This document shows positions 1,821-20,034 of a DNA stretch of 53,795 nt, piece by piece. Numbering within the stretch: position 1 is the first letter of the stretch; every line of letters starts with the position of its first letter. Source of the stretch: a virus; UHGV virus genome UHGV-0191815; one strand, written 5' to 3'. The notes under the pieces were generated by a model, which was not told where the DNA came from, ran no database searches, and saw only the letters and a list, made by a program, of their open reading frames with translations. The translations under genes were made by a program, and so were the position numbers.

Positions 1821-4604
1821 ATGATTTACACAACTGGAACAATTGCCATTAATGGCAACACTGTTAATGGCGCGGGGACAAACTTCTCCGAGCCGCTTTC
1901 TCTCATTCGTGTGGGCTGCACGCTTATTGCTATCAGCAACCCTATCCAGATCTTTACAGTTACAGAAATCAAGAGCAGCACAGAACTGTCAGTAACGCCA
2001 GCGGCTAACCCTGCAATTGCTGCCGGAACAAAATTTAGCATTCTGCTTTCCGACTCGATCTCAGTTGATGGGCTTGCTCAGGACGTAGCTGAAACGCTGC
2101 GTTACTACCAGGGCAAGGAATCAGAGATCGCAACGGCGGTCGAGTGGTGGAATGAGTTCGGCGGTGATGGTCAGATGGAGCAACTTCTTGCCGACATTCG
2201 CACAGAAACGGCGCAATCAACCGCCAACGCTCAAAAAACAGAATCAGACAAAAACGCAGCGGCATCATCAAAAACAGCAGCAGCAAACTCAGCAACCGCA
2301 GCAAAAGCGTCACAGGATGCAGCAAAAGCCAGTGAAACAGCATCCAGCAACAGCAAAAAAGCGGCGGCTACCAGTGAAACCAATGCGGCAAAATCAGCAG
2401 CCGATGCGCTTAACTATCGCAACCAGGCACAGGCCATCACCGGATCTAACATCGGTCTTTCCTCAAATCCTCGAGACTGCCCGGATATTTCAGGAAACCC
2501 ATCAGGTTATCTTGGCTTTCTGCGCATCATGGAAGGGGCTACCGGGTGGCCTTCTATTGCTTCAGGTGAGCGCTATTTGTCTGGCTTTATTTGCCCGACT
2601 TTAGGCAGTGTCCCGGCATTTTCTGGTCTTTTTATAGGGCATATTACCGGCAGTGCTTACACTTATAAGTGGAGCGAATCAACAGGACCGCAATGGGCTA
2701 GACACGCAAGAAAAGATGAATTAGATGAGAATAGCTCACCACAGTTCAGATCTGTAAGTTTAAAAAGAGTTAGTGACTCGACTACCGGATGGGTTGCAGG
2801 AGGTCTTTTATCTAGCGTTTTGGTTGGTACATCAGGATCAGAACGTGTTTACGGTGGACTATACCCTGAGACAAACCTTTCTTTGCCTGACCAATTAACA
2901 CTACATTTGAGATCTGGCGGCGTGAACAGATACGCAAGCCTTAACGTAAACGGTGAATTTATAGCTGACTCTTTCAAACCTAAAAACGCTGAACAGACAA
3001 GGAGAAACATCAACATCCCAACCATAGGCGGTGGCGAGATAATAACAATCGAAGCACCGGAAGGCGTTGAGGATGGGAAGTATTACCCTATAATTATAAA
3101 CGCCAGTTATTACAGCGCGTACATAACTGGCTATCAGATCGATATTGTTACAGCGTCTGGCGCAGGTAATTACCCAATGAACTGTAACACCTTTTCGGGG
3201 TATGTAAGGACTGGTGGGTGGAGCGACAGAAAAGACGGCGGTTATGGTTACTATAATCGTTATAGTGATAAAGAAATCGCTTTACAATCTATCTGCAGTT
3301 CCAGCAAAGACAAAGATAATTTGCTCTTTGTTTTTGTTGAAGCAAGGGCATTTCCTGTTAAAATGCGCTTGCCTGTAGGCGTAACAGCAGAAGCACCAGC
3401 GGCCCAGGTTGTGTATGATAGTGGTAAAGATACAGAAACGATAATCCCGTGGGGTGTATCAGATCCGCTTAGTTCATATAAAAACCTGCAGGTTATGTTT
3501 GACTTCAGGATGGGTCGGTGCGGCTTTTATTCTGCAACGACTGAAGGACTTTATTATATTTGTAGCGGTGGCAGGGTCGGCCTGTTTAACGGAATTACCG
3601 TTGGCGAAGAAATATCTATGACGATGCCAAAGCTAACTATAAATGGCATGATAGGATCATCTAATGGTTACGTTGCACAAACTGACGCTGATTGGAATGG
3701 TCAGCAGTCAGATGGCATAAGCAAGTTTAAACCTATTGCTGGCAATGTTAACACGCCTGAAAACAGCCTAACTTATGGTGGTTTTCATGTTGGATTTAGC
3801 AATAGCCACGCAACTCAATTCGCCGGGCGCAATTCAAAATTCTACGCAAGAAGTTTTGAGGCCGGAGTAGATAAAGGTTGGCGTAGGCTTGCGACGCTTA
3901 ACGATAATCTTGTGCAAAGGTGGACGGGATACCAGGAATTTAAATCAACTGATTTTTATTCCGATACATTCTCAAGAAAACTATCTTTTAAAGTAACAAC
4001 GTCGACAGTAAGAAACGGAGCATTCGAGCTTTGGGGTGATCCAAACAGACCTACCGTTCTTGAGTATAAAATAAGAAATCCAGAGACAGATACAGCACTA
4101 AAATATGCGTTTTACGCGCAACAGAATACTGATGATTCAATAGTATTCAACGTTAACGGCGCTGTGACATGTGTTACAGTGACCCAATCATCAGATCGCG
4201 ATCTGAAGGACAACATTCAGGTTATAGGTGACGCTACCGAAGCAATCCGTAAAATGAACGGGTACACCTACACGCTCAAGGAAAACGGCCTGCCTTACGC
4301 TGGTGTTATCGCTCAGGAGGTCATGGAAGCGCTGCCGGAAGCTGTTGGATCGTTTACTCATTACGGTGAAGCGTTACAAGGCCCAACAGTTGACGGCAAC
4401 GAGCTACGCGAAGAAACTCGTTACCTAAATGTTGATTATGCAGCGGTTACTGGTTTACTTGTCCAGGTGGCACGCGAAACAGATAACCGCGTCACAGAAC
4501 TGGAAGAAGAAAACGCCAGCCTGCGAGCCAACATTGCCGCAATGGATGAGCGCATCGCAAAACTTGAAGCGCTTGTCAGTAAGTTGACCGGAAGCGAAAA
4601 ATAA
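1821..4604 (+). CDS. Side tail fibre protein with C-terminal intramolecular chaperone (peptidase S74-like) domain
   Basis: 927 aa; N-terminus has Ala/Ser/Thr-rich fibre repeats (KAAATSETNAAKS); C-terminus has SDRDLKDNI...YTYTLKE...GVIAQEV...coiled coil, typical of self-cleaving fibre chaperone domains; RBS ggag upstream. Confidence 0.75.
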   Translation: MIYTTGTIAINGNTVNGAGTNFSEPLSLIRVGCTLIAISNPIQIFTVTEIKSSTELSVTPAANPAIAAGTKFSILLSDSISVDGLAQDVAETLRYYQGKESEIATAVEWWNEFGGDGQMEQLLADIRTETAQSTANAQKTESDKNAAASSKTAAANSATAAKASQDAAKASETASSNSKKAAATSETNAAKSAADALNYRNQAQAITGSNIGLSSNPRDCPDISGNPSGYLGFLRIMEGATGWPSIASGERYLSGFICPTLGSVPAFSGLFIGHITGSAYTYKWSESTGPQWARHARKDELDENSSPQFRSVSLKRVSDSTTGWVAGGLLSSVLVGTSGSERVYGGLYPETNLSLPDQLTLHLRSGGVNRYASLNVNGEFIADSFKPKNAEQTRRNINIPTIGGGEIITIEAPEGVEDGKYYPIIINASYYSAYITGYQIDIVTASGAGNYPMNCNTFSGYVRTGGWSDRKDGGYGYYNRYSDKEIALQSICSSSKDKDNLLFVFVEARAFPVKMRLPVGVTAEAPAAQVVYDSGKDTETIIPWGVSDPLSSYKNLQVMFDFRMGRCGFYSATTEGLYYICSGGRVGLFNGITVGEEISMTMPKLTINGMIGSSNGYVAQTDADWNGQQSDGISKFKPIAGNVNTPENSLTYGGFHVGFSNSHATQFAGRNSKFYARSFEAGVDKGWRRLATLNDNLVQRWTGYQEFKSTDFYSDTFSRKLSFKVTTSTVRNGAFELWGDPNRPTVLEYKIRNPETDTALKYAFYAQQNTDDSIVFNVNGAVTCVTVTQSSDRDLKDNIQVIGDATEAIRKMNGYTYTLKENGLPYAGVIAQEVMEALPEAVGSFTHYGEALQGPTVDGNELREETRYLNVDYAAVTGLLVQVARETDNRVTELEEENASLRANIAAMDERIAKLEALVSKLTGSEK

Positions 4605-13909: not shown

Positions 13910-14557
13910 ATGAAAACAAAATGGTATGACTTGGCAAAACAACTCATGCGGGCGCAAGGCATGAGCCAGGATTCATTGGCTGATCTTATGGGGATAACCA
14001 AAGGTGGCCTTTCTCACTGGTTGAACGGTCGCCGTGAGCCGAATCTTGAAGATATTACGCGGATCATGCGGGCGCTTGGGCGTCGGCAATTCACTGTTAC
14101 TCATGATGGTATGGTCATTGATGATTCTGTTTCTAACACGTTGCCGGGAGCGCCACCGCGTGATTTAGGTAGTTACCCGGTTGTTGACTGGAAGGACGCA
14201 GCAAACAATATGGAAGACATACGCCGATCAACATTACCACACGTTACGACTAGCGTTATTTGTTCAGATGATAGTTACTGGCTGGTTGCTAAAGGTGAAT
14301 CAATGAACGCGCCGCAAGGGTTAAGCATCCCGGCGGGTACTATGATACTTGTTGACCCGCACGCGCCAGCTATTGATGGCAAACTGGTTATAGCCCAACT
14401 GGAGGAAGGGCAGACACCGACGTTTAAACAGTTGATTACTGATGGAGGCAGAAAACTTTTGCGTTCACTTAATCCGTTGTATCCTCCGATCCCTATGAAT
14501 CCAGAATCAAAAATCATTGGCGTGGTTGTTGATGCGAAGATCGTAAACCTGCCATAA
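13910..14557 (+). CDS. CI-like prophage repressor (HTH_XRE N-terminal domain + LexA-like S24 peptidase C-terminal domain)
   Basis: HTH (SQDSLADLMGITKGGLSHWLNGRR); C-terminal S24-type region (...LVAKGESMNAPQGLSIPAGTMILVD...KLVIAQLEEGQTPTFKQL) with Ser and Lys catalytic context. Confidence 0.85.
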   Translation: MKTKWYDLAKQLMRAQGMSQDSLADLMGITKGGLSHWLNGRREPNLEDITRIMRALGRRQFTVTHDGMVIDDSVSNTLPGAPPRDLGSYPVVDWKDAANNMEDIRRSTLPHVTTSVICSDDSYWLVAKGESMNAPQGLSIPAGTMILVDPHAPAIDGKLVIAQLEEGQTPTFKQLITDGGRKLLRSLNPLYPPIPMNPESKIIGVVVDAKIVNLP

Positions 14558-14562
14558 ACATT

Positions 14563-14587
14563 AGCCGCCCGGTGGCGGCTTTTCTTT
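14563..14587 (+). terminator. Terminator after the repressor gene
   Basis: Stem agccgcc / ggcggct followed by tttcttt. Confidence 0.5.
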
Positions 14588-14679: not shown

Positions 14680-14708
14680 TTGACTGGTGTTTTTACGTGG
14701 CGTATATT
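14680..14708 (+). promoter_or_regulatory. Sigma70-type promoter for the plus-strand early operon (PL-like), with an operator-like sequence abutting the -35
   Basis: -35 TTGACT (14680-14685), 17-bp spacer, -10 TATATT (14703-14708); gTATACAAAATGTG lies at 14666-14679. Confidence 0.6.
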
Positions 14709-15056: not shown

Positions 15057-15347
15057 ATGGCAGTTACAATCATGTATGGCAAATGTGACAGTAAACTGAA
15101 TGCCAGGGAACGCAGAAGAATAAAAAGAGAAAACGAAAGAAAATCATCACCTGCAATTAATAAAACAGACAATGTGGATAAAGCTATTCGCTTTGCAAAC
15201 GAGGAAAGATGCAAACCAAATAGCATTAAAGAACATCGCAAAGGAGCAACAAAATGGTATGCGGAAAGTGAAAGCGGAAACTACTTCCACGCAACGCAAC
15301 CGCGCCAGCTTGGTGAAATCCCGCTAGACAAAGTTCGATACCATTAA
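15057..15347 (+). CDS. Putative N-like transcription antiterminator (arginine-rich motif protein)
   Basis: 96 aa; N-terminal arginine-rich motif NARERRRIKRENERK; first gene after the promoter and nut-like site; RBS aaggag. Confidence 0.45.
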   Translation: MAVTIMYGKCDSKLNARERRRIKRENERKSSPAINKTDNVDKAIRFANEERCKPNSIKEHRKGATKWYAESESGNYFHATQPRQLGEIPLDKVRYH

Positions 15348-15377: not shown

Positions 15378-15500
15378 ATGGTTATTAAGGCGCTTCAATT
15401 CAAACTGGCGGTAGCGGAAATGCTTCACGATGCCGAAATGTGGAGCGCCGCGAATAAAGCCTTGTATGTAGTGTTAACAGCGAAGGAGATTAAAGAGTGA
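15378..15500 (+). CDS. Hypothetical small protein (40 aa)
   Basis: MVIKALQFKLAVAEMLHDAEMWSAANKALYVVLTAKEIKE; RBS gaggtga; stop overlaps the erf GTG start. Confidence 0.4.
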   Translation: MVIKALQFKLAVAEMLHDAEMWSAANKALYVVLTAKEIKE

Positions 15501-16138
15501 AAACAGAGTTACACAAAAAGCTGTGGACGATTCAACAAACGTTGAACGCTCCGAAAAATCAGCGTAATAATTTTGGTGGGTACAATTACAGATCGGCGGA
15601 GGATATTTTGGAGGCGGTTAAGCCACTTCTTCAAAATATAACGCTGACTGTTAGCGATGAAATCGTCCTGATCGGCAATCGCTATTATGTGAAAGCCACT
15701 GCCACACTAAGCGACGGAGAAGATGAAATTGCGGTAACTGCTTACGCCAGGGAAGAAGAAAGCAAGAAGGGAATGGATGCAAGCCAGCTAACTGGCGCGA
15801 CATCAAGTTATGCTCGTAAATACGCGTTGAACGGGTTGTTCTGTATTGACGATGCGCGAGATCCTGATACTGACGCATACGCTAAGCAGACAGGCCAGCA
15901 GCCTCGCCAACAGAAAAACCCACCAAAACAACAACCACAGCAGCAGAAAGCGCCGCCAAATCCTGATGAAGTGTTAGCGCGTTTCTGTGATGCGGCAGCG
16001 AAAGCGCCGGACGCTAACAAGTTGCGCGAGATATTCGGGAAGTGCTGGAAGCTACTTCCTAAAGATTCAGAGCAGCAACAGAAAGCCAAAGACGTTTATG
16101 ATATTCGCTTAAAAGAGATTAACGGGGAGATCGGTTAA
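15497..16138 (+). CDS. erf: Erf-family single-strand annealing recombinase
   Basis: Strong collinear similarity to P22 Erf: LNAPKNQ..FGGYNYRSAEDILEAVKPLL...DEIVLIGNRYYVKATAT..DGE...REEESKKGMDASQLTGATSSYARKYALNGLFCIDDA. Confidence 0.85.
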   Translation: MKTELHKKLWTIQQTLNAPKNQRNNFGGYNYRSAEDILEAVKPLLQNITLTVSDEIVLIGNRYYVKATATLSDGEDEIAVTAYAREEESKKGMDASQLTGATSSYARKYALNGLFCIDDARDPDTDAYAKQTGQQPRQQKNPPKQQPQQQKAPPNPDEVLARFCDAAAKAPDANKLREIFGKCWKLLPKDSEQQQKAKDVYDIRLKEINGEIG

Positions 16139-16608
16139 TGAGCTTAAATTCAATCACGCTGGGCGGTAATATCGGAAATGATATGGAAGTTCGCCACACG
16201 CAAAACGGTAAAGCTATTGGTAGCTTTCCGTTAGCTGTAACGAATGGCTACGGTGATAATAAAAGGACTATGTGGATCACTTGCCTGGTATTTGGCGAGC
16301 GCGCTGAAAAAATAGCGCCACATATTCGTAAGGGTGGAAAAATAGTGGTAAGCGGTCGCCTGGATGTTCGGCAATATGACCGGAACGACGGCACGAAGGG
16401 GACTGCGGTGGAAGTGGCTGTCAATGAGTTCGAATTCATGAACGTTAACCAGCAAGGCCAGCAGCAAGGCCAACAGCAGAAAGCGCCACCGCAGCAGCAG
16501 AGTAATAACGGTGGATATAAAGAACCGCCAATGGACTTCGACGATGATATTCCATTTGCTCCTGTAGGGTTACAATATGGCAAAAGCAGGATCTACGCGC
16601 TATCTTGA
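16138..16608 (+). CDS. ssb: Single-stranded DNA-binding protein
   Basis: OB-fold N-terminal region (ITLGGNIGNDMEVRHTQNGKAIGSFPLAVTNGYGD), Gln-rich linker, acidic C-terminal tail DFDDDIPF. Confidence 0.85.
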   Translation: MSLNSITLGGNIGNDMEVRHTQNGKAIGSFPLAVTNGYGDNKRTMWITCLVFGERAEKIAPHIRKGGKIVVSGRLDVRQYDRNDGTKGTAVEVAVNEFEFMNVNQQGQQQGQQQKAPPQQQSNNGGYKEPPMDFDDDIPFAPVGLQYGKSRIYALS

Positions 16609-16870
16609 TGCGCCGCCGATTCCGCGAACAAAAGAGCAAGTTCTCAAAGAAGCCCGTGATCAAATCGATCATGGGCTTTTTTTATGCGGCACGGCAGCGG
16701 AACGGATGGCAAAAAGATTTAGTGACCTGTACGCAAAGCAAATATGGTTCGACAACTGGCAGGCAAGTTTTTATCCACTACAAAGAAAACCGGATATGCA
16801 CTGGCCTGAATATGTCGATCCACGTATGCGCAAATATCGCGGGCGTATGGGCCAGGTCATTAACGATTAA
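16577..16870 (+). CDS. Hypothetical protein (start uncertain; 5' end overlaps ssb)
   Basis: ORF continuing the operon. Confidence 0.35.
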   Translation: MAKAGSTRYLDAPPIPRTKEQVLKEARDQIDHGLFLCGTAAERMAKRFSDLYAKQIWFDNWQASFYPLQRKPDMHWPEYVDPRMRKYRGRMGQVIND

Positions 16871-17109
16871 TGAGGTATCAAATCATGATCGAGGAAAAAG
16901 AAGTTGATAAGGAAATGCCTGACACAGCAGATGACTACGTTACTTTTGATGGTGGCCTGTATGAGTTCGATACGTCGGCTGGGTGGACTGATAAGTGGCC
17001 TCTTCCTACTCGCCAGGAACTAATGGCGCGCAAATCATTCGGCGAAGATGCGGAACGCCTTGCCAATAACAAGTGGCTTAACAAGTTTATTGCGGAGGGT
17101 GGAAAATGA
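16870..17109 (+). CDS. Hypothetical protein (79 aa)
   Basis: ORF with ATGA overlap to the next gene. Confidence 0.45.
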   Translation: MRYQIMIEEKEVDKEMPDTADDYVTFDGGLYEFDTSAGWTDKWPLPTRQELMARKSFGEDAERLANNKWLNKFIAEGGK

Positions 17110-17219
17110 ACCTTGCAAAAATTGCCGCACTGATTGCGGCCTTGTCTGTCGCTGTTGTGTATCTCAGCGTATCTCTTTATATCACGGTAGCGATCATTAA
17201 ACTTATTACTAACATGTGA
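17106..17219 (+). CDS. Small transmembrane peptide (37 aa)
   Basis: MNLAKIAALIAALSVAVVYLSVSLYITVAIIKLITNM; ATG overlaps the upstream stop. Confidence 0.4.
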   Translation: MNLAKIAALIAALSVAVVYLSVSLYITVAIIKLITNM

Positions 17220-17228
17220 GGCCAAATC

Positions 17229-17348
17229 ATGAAAGTCGGTAAGGATATTGTGACGGTCGCGTTTTGCATTATTTGTTTCCTGTTTGTGGTTGTGTTTTGC
17301 GGCGGATTTGCTGCGTTGGTTAGTCTTATTTTCAGGGGGCTGTTGTGA
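17229..17348 (+). CDS. Small transmembrane peptide (39 aa)
   Basis: MKVGKDIVTVAFCIICFLFVVVFCGGFAALVSLIFRGLL; stop overlaps the next start (TGATG). Confidence 0.4.
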   Translation: MKVGKDIVTVAFCIICFLFVVVFCGGFAALVSLIFRGLL

Positions 17349-17620
17349 TGAAAACATGGGATGCAAAGGCTGGTGATCTTGTCGTGTTGCCTGAATATCG
17401 TAATGACCCCGGCCTGGTTGTGCTTAACAGATCTGATTGCAATATGGCCCGTCCGATTCTGGTCAGATATTTGGATGGGGTGATTATAGTTCCAGTTTAC
17501 TTTGCTCGAATTGAGCTAATGGCCCGCAATGTTCGCGTTAAGCCGTTCCGGGCTTATGTTGAAGATCACTGGCGGAAATTGTTCGCCGGACTGAATGGGA
17601 TGTACGGCGTATGGCTATAA
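17348..17620 (+). CDS. Hypothetical protein (90 aa)
   Basis: ORF in translationally coupled series. Confidence 0.45.
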   Translation: MKTWDAKAGDLVVLPEYRNDPGLVVLNRSDCNMARPILVRYLDGVIIVPVYFARIELMARNVRVKPFRAYVEDHWRKLFAGLNGMYGVWL

Positions 17621-17802
17621 AATTGGTGAAGGTCAAACACCTGAAAGGCGGCGAAAAATTAATGTCATGGTGGGGGTATGAATTTATCGCCACTGCCTTT
17701 CATTTCGGACCAGGGGGCCAGGTGACAATTTTTGATGAAGATTTCGACGAGGTGGGGCAGTGGCATCTTGAGCAATATATCGAGGTGTTAGATGAAAATT
17801 AA
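17611..17802 (+). CDS. Hypothetical protein (63 aa)
   Basis: ORF in coupled series. Confidence 0.4.
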   Translation: MAIKLVKVKHLKGGEKLMSWWGYEFIATAFHFGPGGQVTIFDEDFDEVGQWHLEQYIEVLDEN

Positions 17803-18124
17803 ATTTCATAAAGCGTATGACGCTGAAAGTAACAAGCTGTCGCTATTTATTGAGTTCGAGCGCCGGATCGTGGTTGTTCCTTATGCGCGTCGCTTCAATG
17901 ATGCGGCAGGGCGGCGGCAGTTCGCGTTAGATATGCTGTTACGTGGCTGCGGCCTTATGCGCCCGCTATCTGATTTGAAACGGATGATGCCTGGATCGTT
18001 CGGTCAGATTGATGAAATTGAAATAAGCAAGGAAGAGCTAAACCGGGCGCGTGATTTGTTCCTTTCAAGCGAAGGAAACCCGTTTAATCCAGAAACTGAA
18101 ATGAGATGGCATCACCCACTATAA
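17792..18124 (+). CDS. Hypothetical protein (110 aa)
   Basis: ORF in coupled series. Confidence 0.45.
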   Translation: MKIKFHKAYDAESNKLSLFIEFERRIVVVPYARRFNDAAGRRQFALDMLLRGCGLMRPLSDLKRMMPGSFGQIDEIEISKEELNRARDLFLSSEGNPFNPETEMRWHHPL

Positions 18125-19076: not shown

Positions 19077-19167
19077 CTATGGACGATTCATTGCTATTTA
19101 TGTGCATTTGCTGGGGTTTTATTGCCTTATGCCTGTTTGTCAGATGGTTTATTGAATATCACATGAG

Positions 19168-19365
19168 GTGATCTATGAAAAGGTTGGCGAATACATGATA
19201 CCGGATAACGCTAAATTAGCCGGAATCGGTCAATTTGGTTGTTATTACTATAACTGCGTAGGTGATATTTATCAGGTCAGTATTGTTGGTGGTGTACAAC
19301 ATTTTCGTCTTATGCACTTTGAATTAAGCGCACTTAAAAAGGCGGTGTTAATGTATGAAGTTTAA
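19168..19365 (+). CDS. Hypothetical protein (start uncertain)
   Basis: ORF; possible GTG or internal ATG start. Confidence 0.35.
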   Translation: MIYEKVGEYMIPDNAKLAGIGQFGCYYYNCVGDIYQVSIVGGVQHFRLMHFELSALKKAVLMYEV

Positions 19366-19558
19366 ACAGTACAAAGACTGGAAGATTCCAGAAGAAGCAA
19401 CAAAGGCAGCGCCCGGAATTTTTTCGGGCGTTTATTTTTATATGGAAGGTAAATGGTATTTCGGCAGCAGGCCGGATCATTATTATCAAGAATTATGCAA
19501 GTCTCACACATGGGATATTAAGGAACGCGTGCAAGGTGGTGTAATAGACGAGGTTTAA
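19355..19558 (+). CDS. Hypothetical protein (67 aa)
   Basis: ORF in coupled series. Confidence 0.4.
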   Translation: MKFKQYKDWKIPEEATKAAPGIFSGVYFYMEGKWYFGSRPDHYYQELCKSHTWDIKERVQGGVIDEV

Positions 19559-19559
19559 A

Positions 19560-19796
19560 ATGGTTAAGTGTTTTTTAAACTGGTTAAAGACGTGGCTTTT
19601 GTGTACGCTTCGTGTTTTTTTGGTGTTCGGTTGCGCTATCGTCGTATTTACGCTGGGTGTGATGTTTGTTACATGGTCAGTTCCTGAATTTAACGACATT
19701 GATGGTATTCTTTTTACGGTGCGTGTTTTATTGGCTGTTAGCGCATTCATTGGTTTTTGCTGGACTGTAGCGCCTGATTGGGAAGATGAATGGTGA
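19560..19796 (+). CDS. Small integral membrane protein (78 aa, 2-3 predicted TM segments)
   Basis: Hydrophobic stretches LLCTLRVFLVFGCAIVVFTLGVMFV and LLAVSAFIGFCWTV. Confidence 0.45.
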   Translation: MVKCFLNWLKTWLLCTLRVFLVFGCAIVVFTLGVMFVTWSVPEFNDIDGILFTVRVLLAVSAFIGFCWTVAPDWEDEW

Positions 19797-20034
19797 TCCT
19801 ATGGCTTTGTTTAATATGTCAGAGCCGCAATTCAACGCCGTAAAAACTGCCGCGCGTGCGGCGCTTTCTGCCTGCAAAGCAGAGGCGGAAAGAAACGGCT
19901 ACAGCGATAAAGCTACGCGGCTGATATTAGAAAAGCATTATCGCAAGGTCGCCCCGCTAATCAGCATTGAGCGTTTTGTGTGGTTGGTTGGGTATCTCAA
20001 TAATAGATGGGGGACTGACCAGGATTATTTTTAG
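19786..20034 (+). CDS. Hypothetical protein (about 80 aa)
   Basis: ORF in coupled series. Confidence 0.4.
   Translation: MNGDPMALFNMSEPQFNAVKTAARAALSACKAEAERNGYSDKATRLILEKHYRKVAPLISIERFVWLVGYLNNRWGTDQDYF

Follow-up and report, generated by a model that had tools for sequence, protein, structure and literature searches.

What do two very short, adjacent open reading frames (ORFs) in the early operon of a phage encode, and how might their products act? The ORFs, here called ORF1 and ORF2, lie in UHGV virus genome UHGV-0191815, a stretch of 53,795 nucleotides (nt) that was analysed at full length, is called the window below and supplies all coordinates unless another locus is named. The original prediction had described a coupled pair of 37 and 39 codons, joined to their neighbours by ATGA and TGATG overlaps and encoding single-helix hydrophobic peptides, and coordinates, hydropathy and AlphaFold2 models agree with this description. 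Purifying selection, coupling, transmembrane (TM) character, restriction to one phage group and inheritance as a cassette are directly supported. Taking the whole chain of claims together, we consider it somewhat likely that the ORFs encode a co-translated pair of micropeptides, both with the N-terminus inside, that jointly modulates a protein of the host inner membrane.

Both ORFs are very probably translated genes

The two ORFs and the elements that frame them are as follows.

17106-17219, + strand: ORF1, ATG at 17106 and TGA ending at 17219, 37 amino acids (aa), MNLAKIAALIAALSVAVVYLSVSLYITVAIIKLITNM
17229-17348, + strand: ORF2, ATG at 17229 and TGA ending at 17348, 39 aa, MKVGKDIVTVAFCIICFLFVVVFCGGFAALVSLIFRGLL
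17094-17098, + strand: Shine-Dalgarno motif GGAGG, 7 nt 5' of the ORF1 ATG, within the end of the upstream gene
17218-17221, + strand: Shine-Dalgarno motif GAGG, 7 nt 5' of the ORF2 ATG, overlapping the ORF1 stop codon
16885-17109, + strand: upstream DUF2737-like gene, 74 aa when counted from the conserved ATG, or 79 aa from an alternative start at 16870
17348-17620, + strand: downstream 90-aa gene, matching phrog_28396 (E=4e-49)

The start codon of ORF1 shares bases with the TGA of the DUF2737-like gene (ATGA, 17106-17109), and the stop codon of ORF2 shares bases with the ATG of the 90-aa gene (TGATG, 17346-17350). Since the next genes (starts at 17611 and 17792) likewise begin within the gene before them, the region forms a chain of tightly packed genes, in which a gap of 240 nt would be unusual if ORF1 and ORF2 were absent.

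Related loci were gathered from IMG/VR, 27 of them via the neighbouring 90-aa protein and more via the two peptides. The first set contained 24 unique relatives with 72-91% nucleotide identity, and all loci together gave 40 unique segments. Both ORFs are open in all 24 relatives of the first set and intact in 39 of the 40 unique segments, the exception being locus L075. Insertions and deletions within the ORFs measure 6 nt and 3 nt and are in frame, and those of 1-2 nt are confined to the spacer between the ORFs. Minor-allele counts at codon positions 1, 2 and 3 were 100, 43 and 217 for ORF1 and 139, 85 and 181 for ORF2. The pooled pairwise ratio of nonsynonymous to synonymous substitution rates (dN/dS) was 0.165 for ORF1 and 0.334 for ORF2, a level of constraint comparable to that of the flanking genes (0.178 and 0.210); in the other forward frames the ratio was 0.74-1.70. 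The translation signals are conserved as well. GGAGG precedes ORF1 in 24 of 24 aligned relatives, the ATGA overlap and the Shine-Dalgarno motifs are retained across all alleles, and the downstream stop/start overlap is kept in all alleles in one of three forms, TGATG, TAATG or ATGA. On this comparative evidence, we hold with high confidence that both ORFs are translated genes under purifying selection.

Rare disrupted variants were also seen. In P0048, a deletion has joined codons 1-24 of ORF1 to the end of ORF2 read out of frame; P0049, P0074 and P0075 carry frameshifts in ORF1 or ORF2; and in L075 (around 2935-3110 of that locus) the ORF1 start has been lost through a small deletion.

Three other features of the locus were considered. 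First, in the window ORF1 and ORF2 share a reading frame, with the TGA and three codons (GQI) between them. The spacer is 9 nt here and 3-9 nt among relatives, most of which have a spacer 1-3 nt shorter, placing the two ORFs in different frames; stop-codon readthrough from ORF1 into ORF2 is therefore not conserved. Second, an antisense ORF of 143 aa (16935-17366) was rejected as a gene, being interrupted by stops in 13 of 24 relatives. Third, ORF1 contains a GC-rich hairpin.

17124-17140: hairpin GCCGCA-ctgat-TGCGGC, inside ORF1 (alanine codons), 'TERM_2' in the mEp021 record

This hairpin was rejected both as a terminator and as an element of an antisense RNA: its folding z-score is -0.69, 44 of 200 shuffled sequences fold equally well or better, and the + strand has no U-tract after it.

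The peptides are predicted single-pass membrane helices

Both peptides are strongly hydrophobic, with grand averages of hydropathy of 1.78 (ORF1) and 2.03 (ORF2) and maximum 19-residue Kyte-Doolittle means of 2.44 and 3.04, respectively. AlphaFold2 models each as one continuous helix, covering residues 3-35 of ORF1 and 3-38 of ORF2 (predicted local distance difference test scores of 96.9 and 88.6). The uncharged core of ORF1 comprises residues 6-31, with K5 on its N side and K32 on its C side; that of ORF2 comprises residues 7-35, preceded by the N-terminal MKVGKD and followed by R36. Core length hardly varies: every one of the 22 ORF1 variants has a core of 26 aa, and 23 of the 27 ORF2 variants have one of 29 aa. 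By these predictions both peptides are single-pass TM helices. In every variant the N side carries a charge of +1 to +4 and the C side 0 to -2, so the positive-inside rule predicts an N-in/C-out orientation for both peptides, and with the same orientation the two helices would lie parallel.

Conserved residues differ between the two peptides. The N-terminal half of ORF1 retains an alanine-rich small-xxx-small stretch (A7/A8, A11/A12, A16), and its conserved C-terminal half carries a polar and aromatic stripe (Y19, S21, S23, Y25, T27). In ORF2 the retained residues are F12, F17, F19, G25, A28, A29, I34 and G37. Two other views of the pair were tried and rejected. The ORFs are not tandem paralogues by profile comparison (hhalign probability only 4%). 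Nor does ORF2 look like a lipoprotein or secreted peptide: the window sequence, which reads VVFC (VVSC in some variants), has no lipobox of the form [LVI][ASTVI][GAS]C, the ORF2 cysteines are not conserved in the type B allele described below, which lacks Cys24, and signal-peptide cleavage is disfavoured because only about 15 hydrophobic residues would remain.

The two genes are inherited as one cassette

Three allelic forms of the pair were found among the relatives. In type A, an ORF1 beginning MN[LF]AKI accompanies an ORF2 beginning MKVGKD; in type B, an ORF1 of 35 aa (MKKIAM) accompanies an ORF2 of 38 aa (MRVDKN); and in type C, an ORF1 of 39 aa (MSMVKI) accompanies an ORF2 that begins MKVCKN. 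Diverged alleles share 39-69% aa identity. ORF1 types B and C occur only with ORF2 types B and C (7 of 7 and 4 of 4 cases), and pairwise identities of ORF1 and ORF2 are correlated with a Spearman coefficient of 0.83, compared with 0.21-0.41 for either ORF against the adjacent genes. Individual loci show the same pattern. Between L010 and mEp554 (locus L001) the flanks are 95-96% identical and the ORFs 58-62%, and between L010 and L030 the ORFs are 97-100% identical and the flanks 71-85%. These identities indicate that recombination shifts both genes jointly, with breakpoints at the borders of the cassette, and at the sequence level the co-switching suggests a co-adapted two-peptide unit. Two unrelated TM micropeptides that are inherited together and come in three allelic forms would offer a compact system for studying the recognition of a target and of each other.

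The pair belongs to mEpimmI phages

The window aligns collinearly with mEp554, mEp044, mEp010, mEp013, mEp515, mEp021 and MagusPhagus, all of them mEp021-like phages (86-91% identity), and the same region is present as a prophage in 35 of 5,426 complete Escherichia coli genomes. By sequence, the window is thus a member of the mEpimmI (mEp021-like) group of temperate coliphages, which has been reported to be prevalent in the human gut. These phages are Nus-dependent and non-lambdoid, with a lambda-like regulatory layout (PMC11893012), so the label 'lambdoid' in the original prediction does not match their published description. They encode a CI-like repressor and Gp17, an N-like antiterminator whose sites of action are nutR1 (upstream of gp17), nutR2 and nutL (PMC11893012). 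The early-operon location given earlier for the pair is borne out, since it follows Gp17, erf, ssb and abc2 in the order below; after abc2 come the DUF2737-like gene, ORF1, ORF2, the 90-aa gene and further genes.

13910-14557: cI-like repressor
14563-14580: terminator
14680-14708: promoter-like site (PR-like)
15057-15347: Gp17, N-like antiterminator
15378-15500, + strand: 40-aa Kil-like ORF
15497-16138: erf
16138-16608: ssb
16577-16870: abc2, anti-RecBCD (phrog_656, E=1.6e-30)
19408-19432: strong terminator closing the early operon

Between ssb and abc2 (around 16608 of the window), an additional segment of about 500 base pairs is present in mEp554, mEp021 and mEp515 (2045-2608 in locus L001, 2049-2587 in locus L002); the mEp554 annotation calls it 'endonuclease VII'. 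The window does not have it, which is why its BLAST matches to these relatives come in two pieces.

The genes on either side of the pair are poorly characterised. The upstream gene matches phrog_28542 (E=1e-47) and, weakly, the Pfam family DUF2737 (E=0.0034), and its orthologue is labelled 'DUF2737 family protein' by the Prokaryotic Genome Annotation Pipeline (PGAP). The 90-aa gene is labelled 'toxin-antitoxin system toxin subunit' by PGAP and 'putative toxin-antitoxin system subunit' in the mEp021 record; no match in Pfam, NCBIfam or PADLOC backs this label, which looks unverified. A scan of genome contigs with the 90-aa protein as query yielded no match.

Searches with the peptides led back to the same phages. 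Neither ORF has a Pfam match at E ≤ 1. At gathering scores, no Rfam family was matched anywhere in the window, and with a cut-off of E ≤ 5 the stretch 16500-18000 yielded matches at chance level only. Among 5.8 billion proteins searched, only same-family proteins of 37 aa and of 39-40 aa and a few disrupted forms were found; their sources were E. coli and contigs no longer than about 5 megabases. Most matches from a pattern scan of IMG/VR lie between DUF2737-like and 90-aa genes on contigs of about 50-57 kilobases (kb; range 11.7-76.7 kb). As far as these sequence collections reach, the pair is specific to the mEpimmI group and nearly universal in it.

Existing annotation treats the peptides as hypothetical or omits them. 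Hypothetical proteins called by Phanotate, mEp554_27 for ORF1 (PP180005) and mEp554_28 and mEp044_28 for ORF2, together with the mEp010 orthologues, have the same length and the same place between the DUF2737-like and 90-aa genes. The ORF2 copies of mEp554 and mEp010 share 95-97% identity with that of the window, and ORF1 differs from the mEp554 copy at 3 of 37 residues. Neither ORF is annotated in the mEp021 record or in a PGAP-annotated prophage. The main text of PMC11893012 does not contain the word 'transmembrane', and the peptides were not found in its supplementary files; the mass spectrometry reported for the group covered virion structural proteins of mEp021 (PMC11893012). Small membrane proteins are routinely overlooked by annotation pipelines, and ORF1 and ORF2 are an instance of this despite constraint on the level of their neighbours.

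A Kil-like candidate and other small ORFs

The original prediction likened the pair to Kil. Neither ORF1 nor ORF2 matches Lambda_Kil, and a better candidate lies elsewhere in the operon: the soluble 40-aa ORF at 15378-15500 (+ strand), between Gp17 and erf, whose start it overlaps by 4 nt. Its match to PF06301 Lambda_Kil (E=1.8e-4) scores 21.4 bits, short of the 27.6 set as the gathering score, and it also matches phrog_2055 (E=9e-4), named 'Kil protein for bacterial septation inhibition'. Lambda_Kil is likewise matched by 18 of the 19 members of its family, at best with E=6e-7, and several relatives have a precomputed PF06301 match. It is annotated only as hypothetical. Judging from these profile matches, the ORF is probably a remote Lambda_Kil relative and the division-inhibitor gene of the mEpimmI group, a placement that corrects the functional map of the operon.

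It had also been proposed that small membrane peptides are a recurring feature of this genome, together with an array in the late region. The first part holds: of the ATG-initiated ORFs between 30 and 70 aa long, 9 in the window have a TM-like segment, whereas dinucleotide shuffles give 1.1 ± 1.3. The late-region array turned out to be mostly an ordinary lysis cassette.

29876-30109: holin
30110-30601: endolysin
30589-31059: Rz
30797-30991: Rz1, embedded

Other small membrane ORFs were also observed. A third early-operon micropeptide, at 19079-19171 (+ strand; 30 aa, MDDSLLFMCICWGFIALCLFVRWFIEYHMR; mEp554_35), has one TM-like segment and no family match; it is conserved, and related loci carry 18 unique variants of it. 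Further on, and likewise counted with the early operon, 19560-19796 (+ strand) encodes a conserved 78-aa protein with two TM segments, labelled 'cell division protein FtsK' by PGAP in a prophage. It has diverged allelic forms among relatives and overlaps the start of a gene homologous to ipe of mEp021 (phrog_303, 'inducer of pleiotropic effects'), the two together occupying 19560-20034 (+ strand). On either side of the lysis cassette, 29202-29441 and 31986-32180 (both + strand) encode small two-TM proteins; the former matches phrog_10061, of unknown function, and the latter has no family. Their products could be antiholin-like or other lysis-associated membrane proteins.

Proposed function and alternative explanations

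In the mechanism we propose, the pair would be transcribed within the rightward early operon from the PR-like promoter downstream of the cI-like repressor gene, and its context implies that expression of the operon would depend on the antiterminator Gp17. Translation would proceed by coupling along the chain from the DUF2737-like gene through ORF1 and ORF2 to the 90-aa gene. Each peptide would then insert into the inner membrane with its basic N-terminus in the cytoplasm and a C-terminus of 2-6 residues in the periplasm, and the two would act as one functional unit, probably hetero-oligomeric. Likely packing surfaces are the A7/A8, A11/A12 and A16 face of ORF1 and G25-x-x-A28-A29 of ORF2, together with the ORF1 stripe Y19-S23-T27. 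Early in lytic growth, the pair may bind and modulate a larger protein of the host inner membrane, which would make it an accessory function in host takeover.

We lean towards a modulator by analogy, because characterised small membrane proteins generally act in this way and because there is a phage precedent in PhiNM1 Gp11, a small early membrane protein that blocks division and has MurG and DivIC, two membrane proteins of the host, as binding partners (PMC11237401). Several points weigh against our proposal. Translation, membrane insertion, topology, pairing and target rest on inference from the sequence. No homologue of known function emerged, since PHROGs, NCBIfam, PADLOC and PDB sequences gave no meaningful match for either ORF and an exhaustive ORF1 profile search of 1.84 billion cluster representatives returned only its own family. 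Conservation along the helices shows no clean helical periodicity. Physical linkage alone could yield co-switching of genes that lie about 10 nt apart, and the rare natural disruptions imply that the pair is dispensable, at least for prophage persistence. As it stands, the result is an incremental one at the level of annotation.

Other functions were weighed against this proposal. One, the idea of the original prediction transferred to the membrane, is that either peptide or the pair stops the host from dividing, or kills it, through binding to membrane proteins of the divisome or of cell-wall synthesis. SP01 Gp56 and Caulobacter SidA are precedents for small membrane proteins that block division. 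ORF1 and ORF2 resemble such proteins in being small, TM products of early genes, and the binding of MurG and DivIC by PhiNM1 Gp11 again offers a phage example (PMC11237401). However, neither ORF matches Lambda_Kil or any family of division inhibitors, and with the soluble Kil-like ORF at 15378-15500 already in the operon, a second inhibitor is not needed to explain the genome. We regard a division block or host killing as unlikely.

To a similarly low degree we credit a role in conflict between phages or with host defence, in which the pair would block the entry of superinfecting DNA or neutralise a membrane defence effector and its alleles would reflect diversifying conflict. The position of the pair in an accessory stretch near the anti-RecBCD gene abc2 fits such a role, as does the joint swapping of discrete, diverged alleles (39-69% aa identity) between flanks that are about 95% identical. 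Yet the dN/dS of both ORFs is well under 1, there is no match to PADLOC or any other family, and no internal promoter above chance was found that could express the pair from a repressed prophage; moreover, the exclusion proteins characterised in mEpimmI phages are lipoproteins encoded elsewhere (PMC11893012). A more specific version, which we consider more doubtful still, is that the peptides form an obligate heteromeric membrane complex in a conflict at the inner membrane, neutralising a membrane-embedded defence or abortive-infection effector or gating DNA entry. If it were true, the three co-switching cassettes would be specificity variants kept by an arms race, and the pair would represent a hitherto undescribed type of module for anti-defence or exclusion, built from two micropeptides.

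It is improbable that the peptides are membrane-permeabilising toxins, like type I toxins or like viroporins or holins, that depolarise the inner membrane. Their size and single TM helix and the polar stripe of ORF1 (Y19, S21, S23, Y25, T27) are akin to those of small pore-forming toxins, and when the hairpin is read on the minus strand (17140-17124), AATTTTT comes next. But no Hok/Gef, Ldr, TisB, Ibs, Fst or holin family was matched (Pfam at E ≤ 1, PHROGs), Rfam detected no antisense RNA in the window, no promoter-like site was found on the minus strand near 17100-17700, and the total number of such sites equals the expectation from shuffles; these promoter and Rfam scans were consensus-based, and a non-canonical RNA could escape them. 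The hairpin is no more stable than shuffled sequence, and the genes, joined to their neighbours by overlaps, form part of a polycistronic early operon and not an independent toxin/antisense locus. The lysis cassette occupies another region (29876-31059), and depolarisation early in infection would presumably hurt phage growth. Least plausible of all is that the peptide sequences have no function, as a translational relay coupling the 90-aa gene to the upstream gene or as chance ORFs: tight start/stop overlaps, the readiness with which T-rich frames give hydrophobic ORFs and the missing annotation in the mEp021 record and in PGAP-annotated prophages would fit, but dN/dS values of 0.17 and 0.33 show that the amino-acid sequence is under selection, alleles down to 39-47% identity retain TM length and charge asymmetry, and 39 of 40 segments are intact.

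Comparison with known systems

Lambda Kil is a soluble inhibitor directed at FtsZ. ORF1 and ORF2 resemble Kil (PF06301) in that both cases concern small peptides from the antiterminated early operon of a temperate coliphage; they differ in being TM, whereas Kil is soluble, and in having no PF06301 match at E ≤ 1. Type I toxins (Hok/Gef, Ldr, TisB, Ibs, ShoB) are likewise short and hydrophobic, consist of a single helix and frequently reside on prophages, but ORF1 and ORF2 have no match to these families and no detected antisense RNA or promoter of their own, and are coupled inside an operon. As holins or other lysis-cassette proteins the two were rejected, since the cassette is at 29876-31059 and no PHROG holin was matched.

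With PhiNM1 Gp11 and SP01 Gp56 the pair shares the character of small, membrane-anchored, host-directed early-gene products (PMC11237401 for Gp11), with host direction being predicted in the case of ORF1 and ORF2. Those proteins come from phages of Gram-positive bacteria and are single proteins, not a pair, and no sequence relationship to ORF1 or ORF2 was found.

ORF1 and ORF2 have the generic features of single-pass membrane proteins, namely a spanning helix, a charge bias and purifying selection. From the bacterial regulators AcrZ, MgtS, MgrB, KdpF and SidA they differ in lacking homology and in being a phage-encoded, adjacent, unrelated and co-inherited pair. The likeness to this group lies in a length of about 30-50 aa, a single TM helix and a frequent location within operons, and the members of the group bind larger membrane proteins (PMC12648545), as we propose for ORF1 and ORF2.

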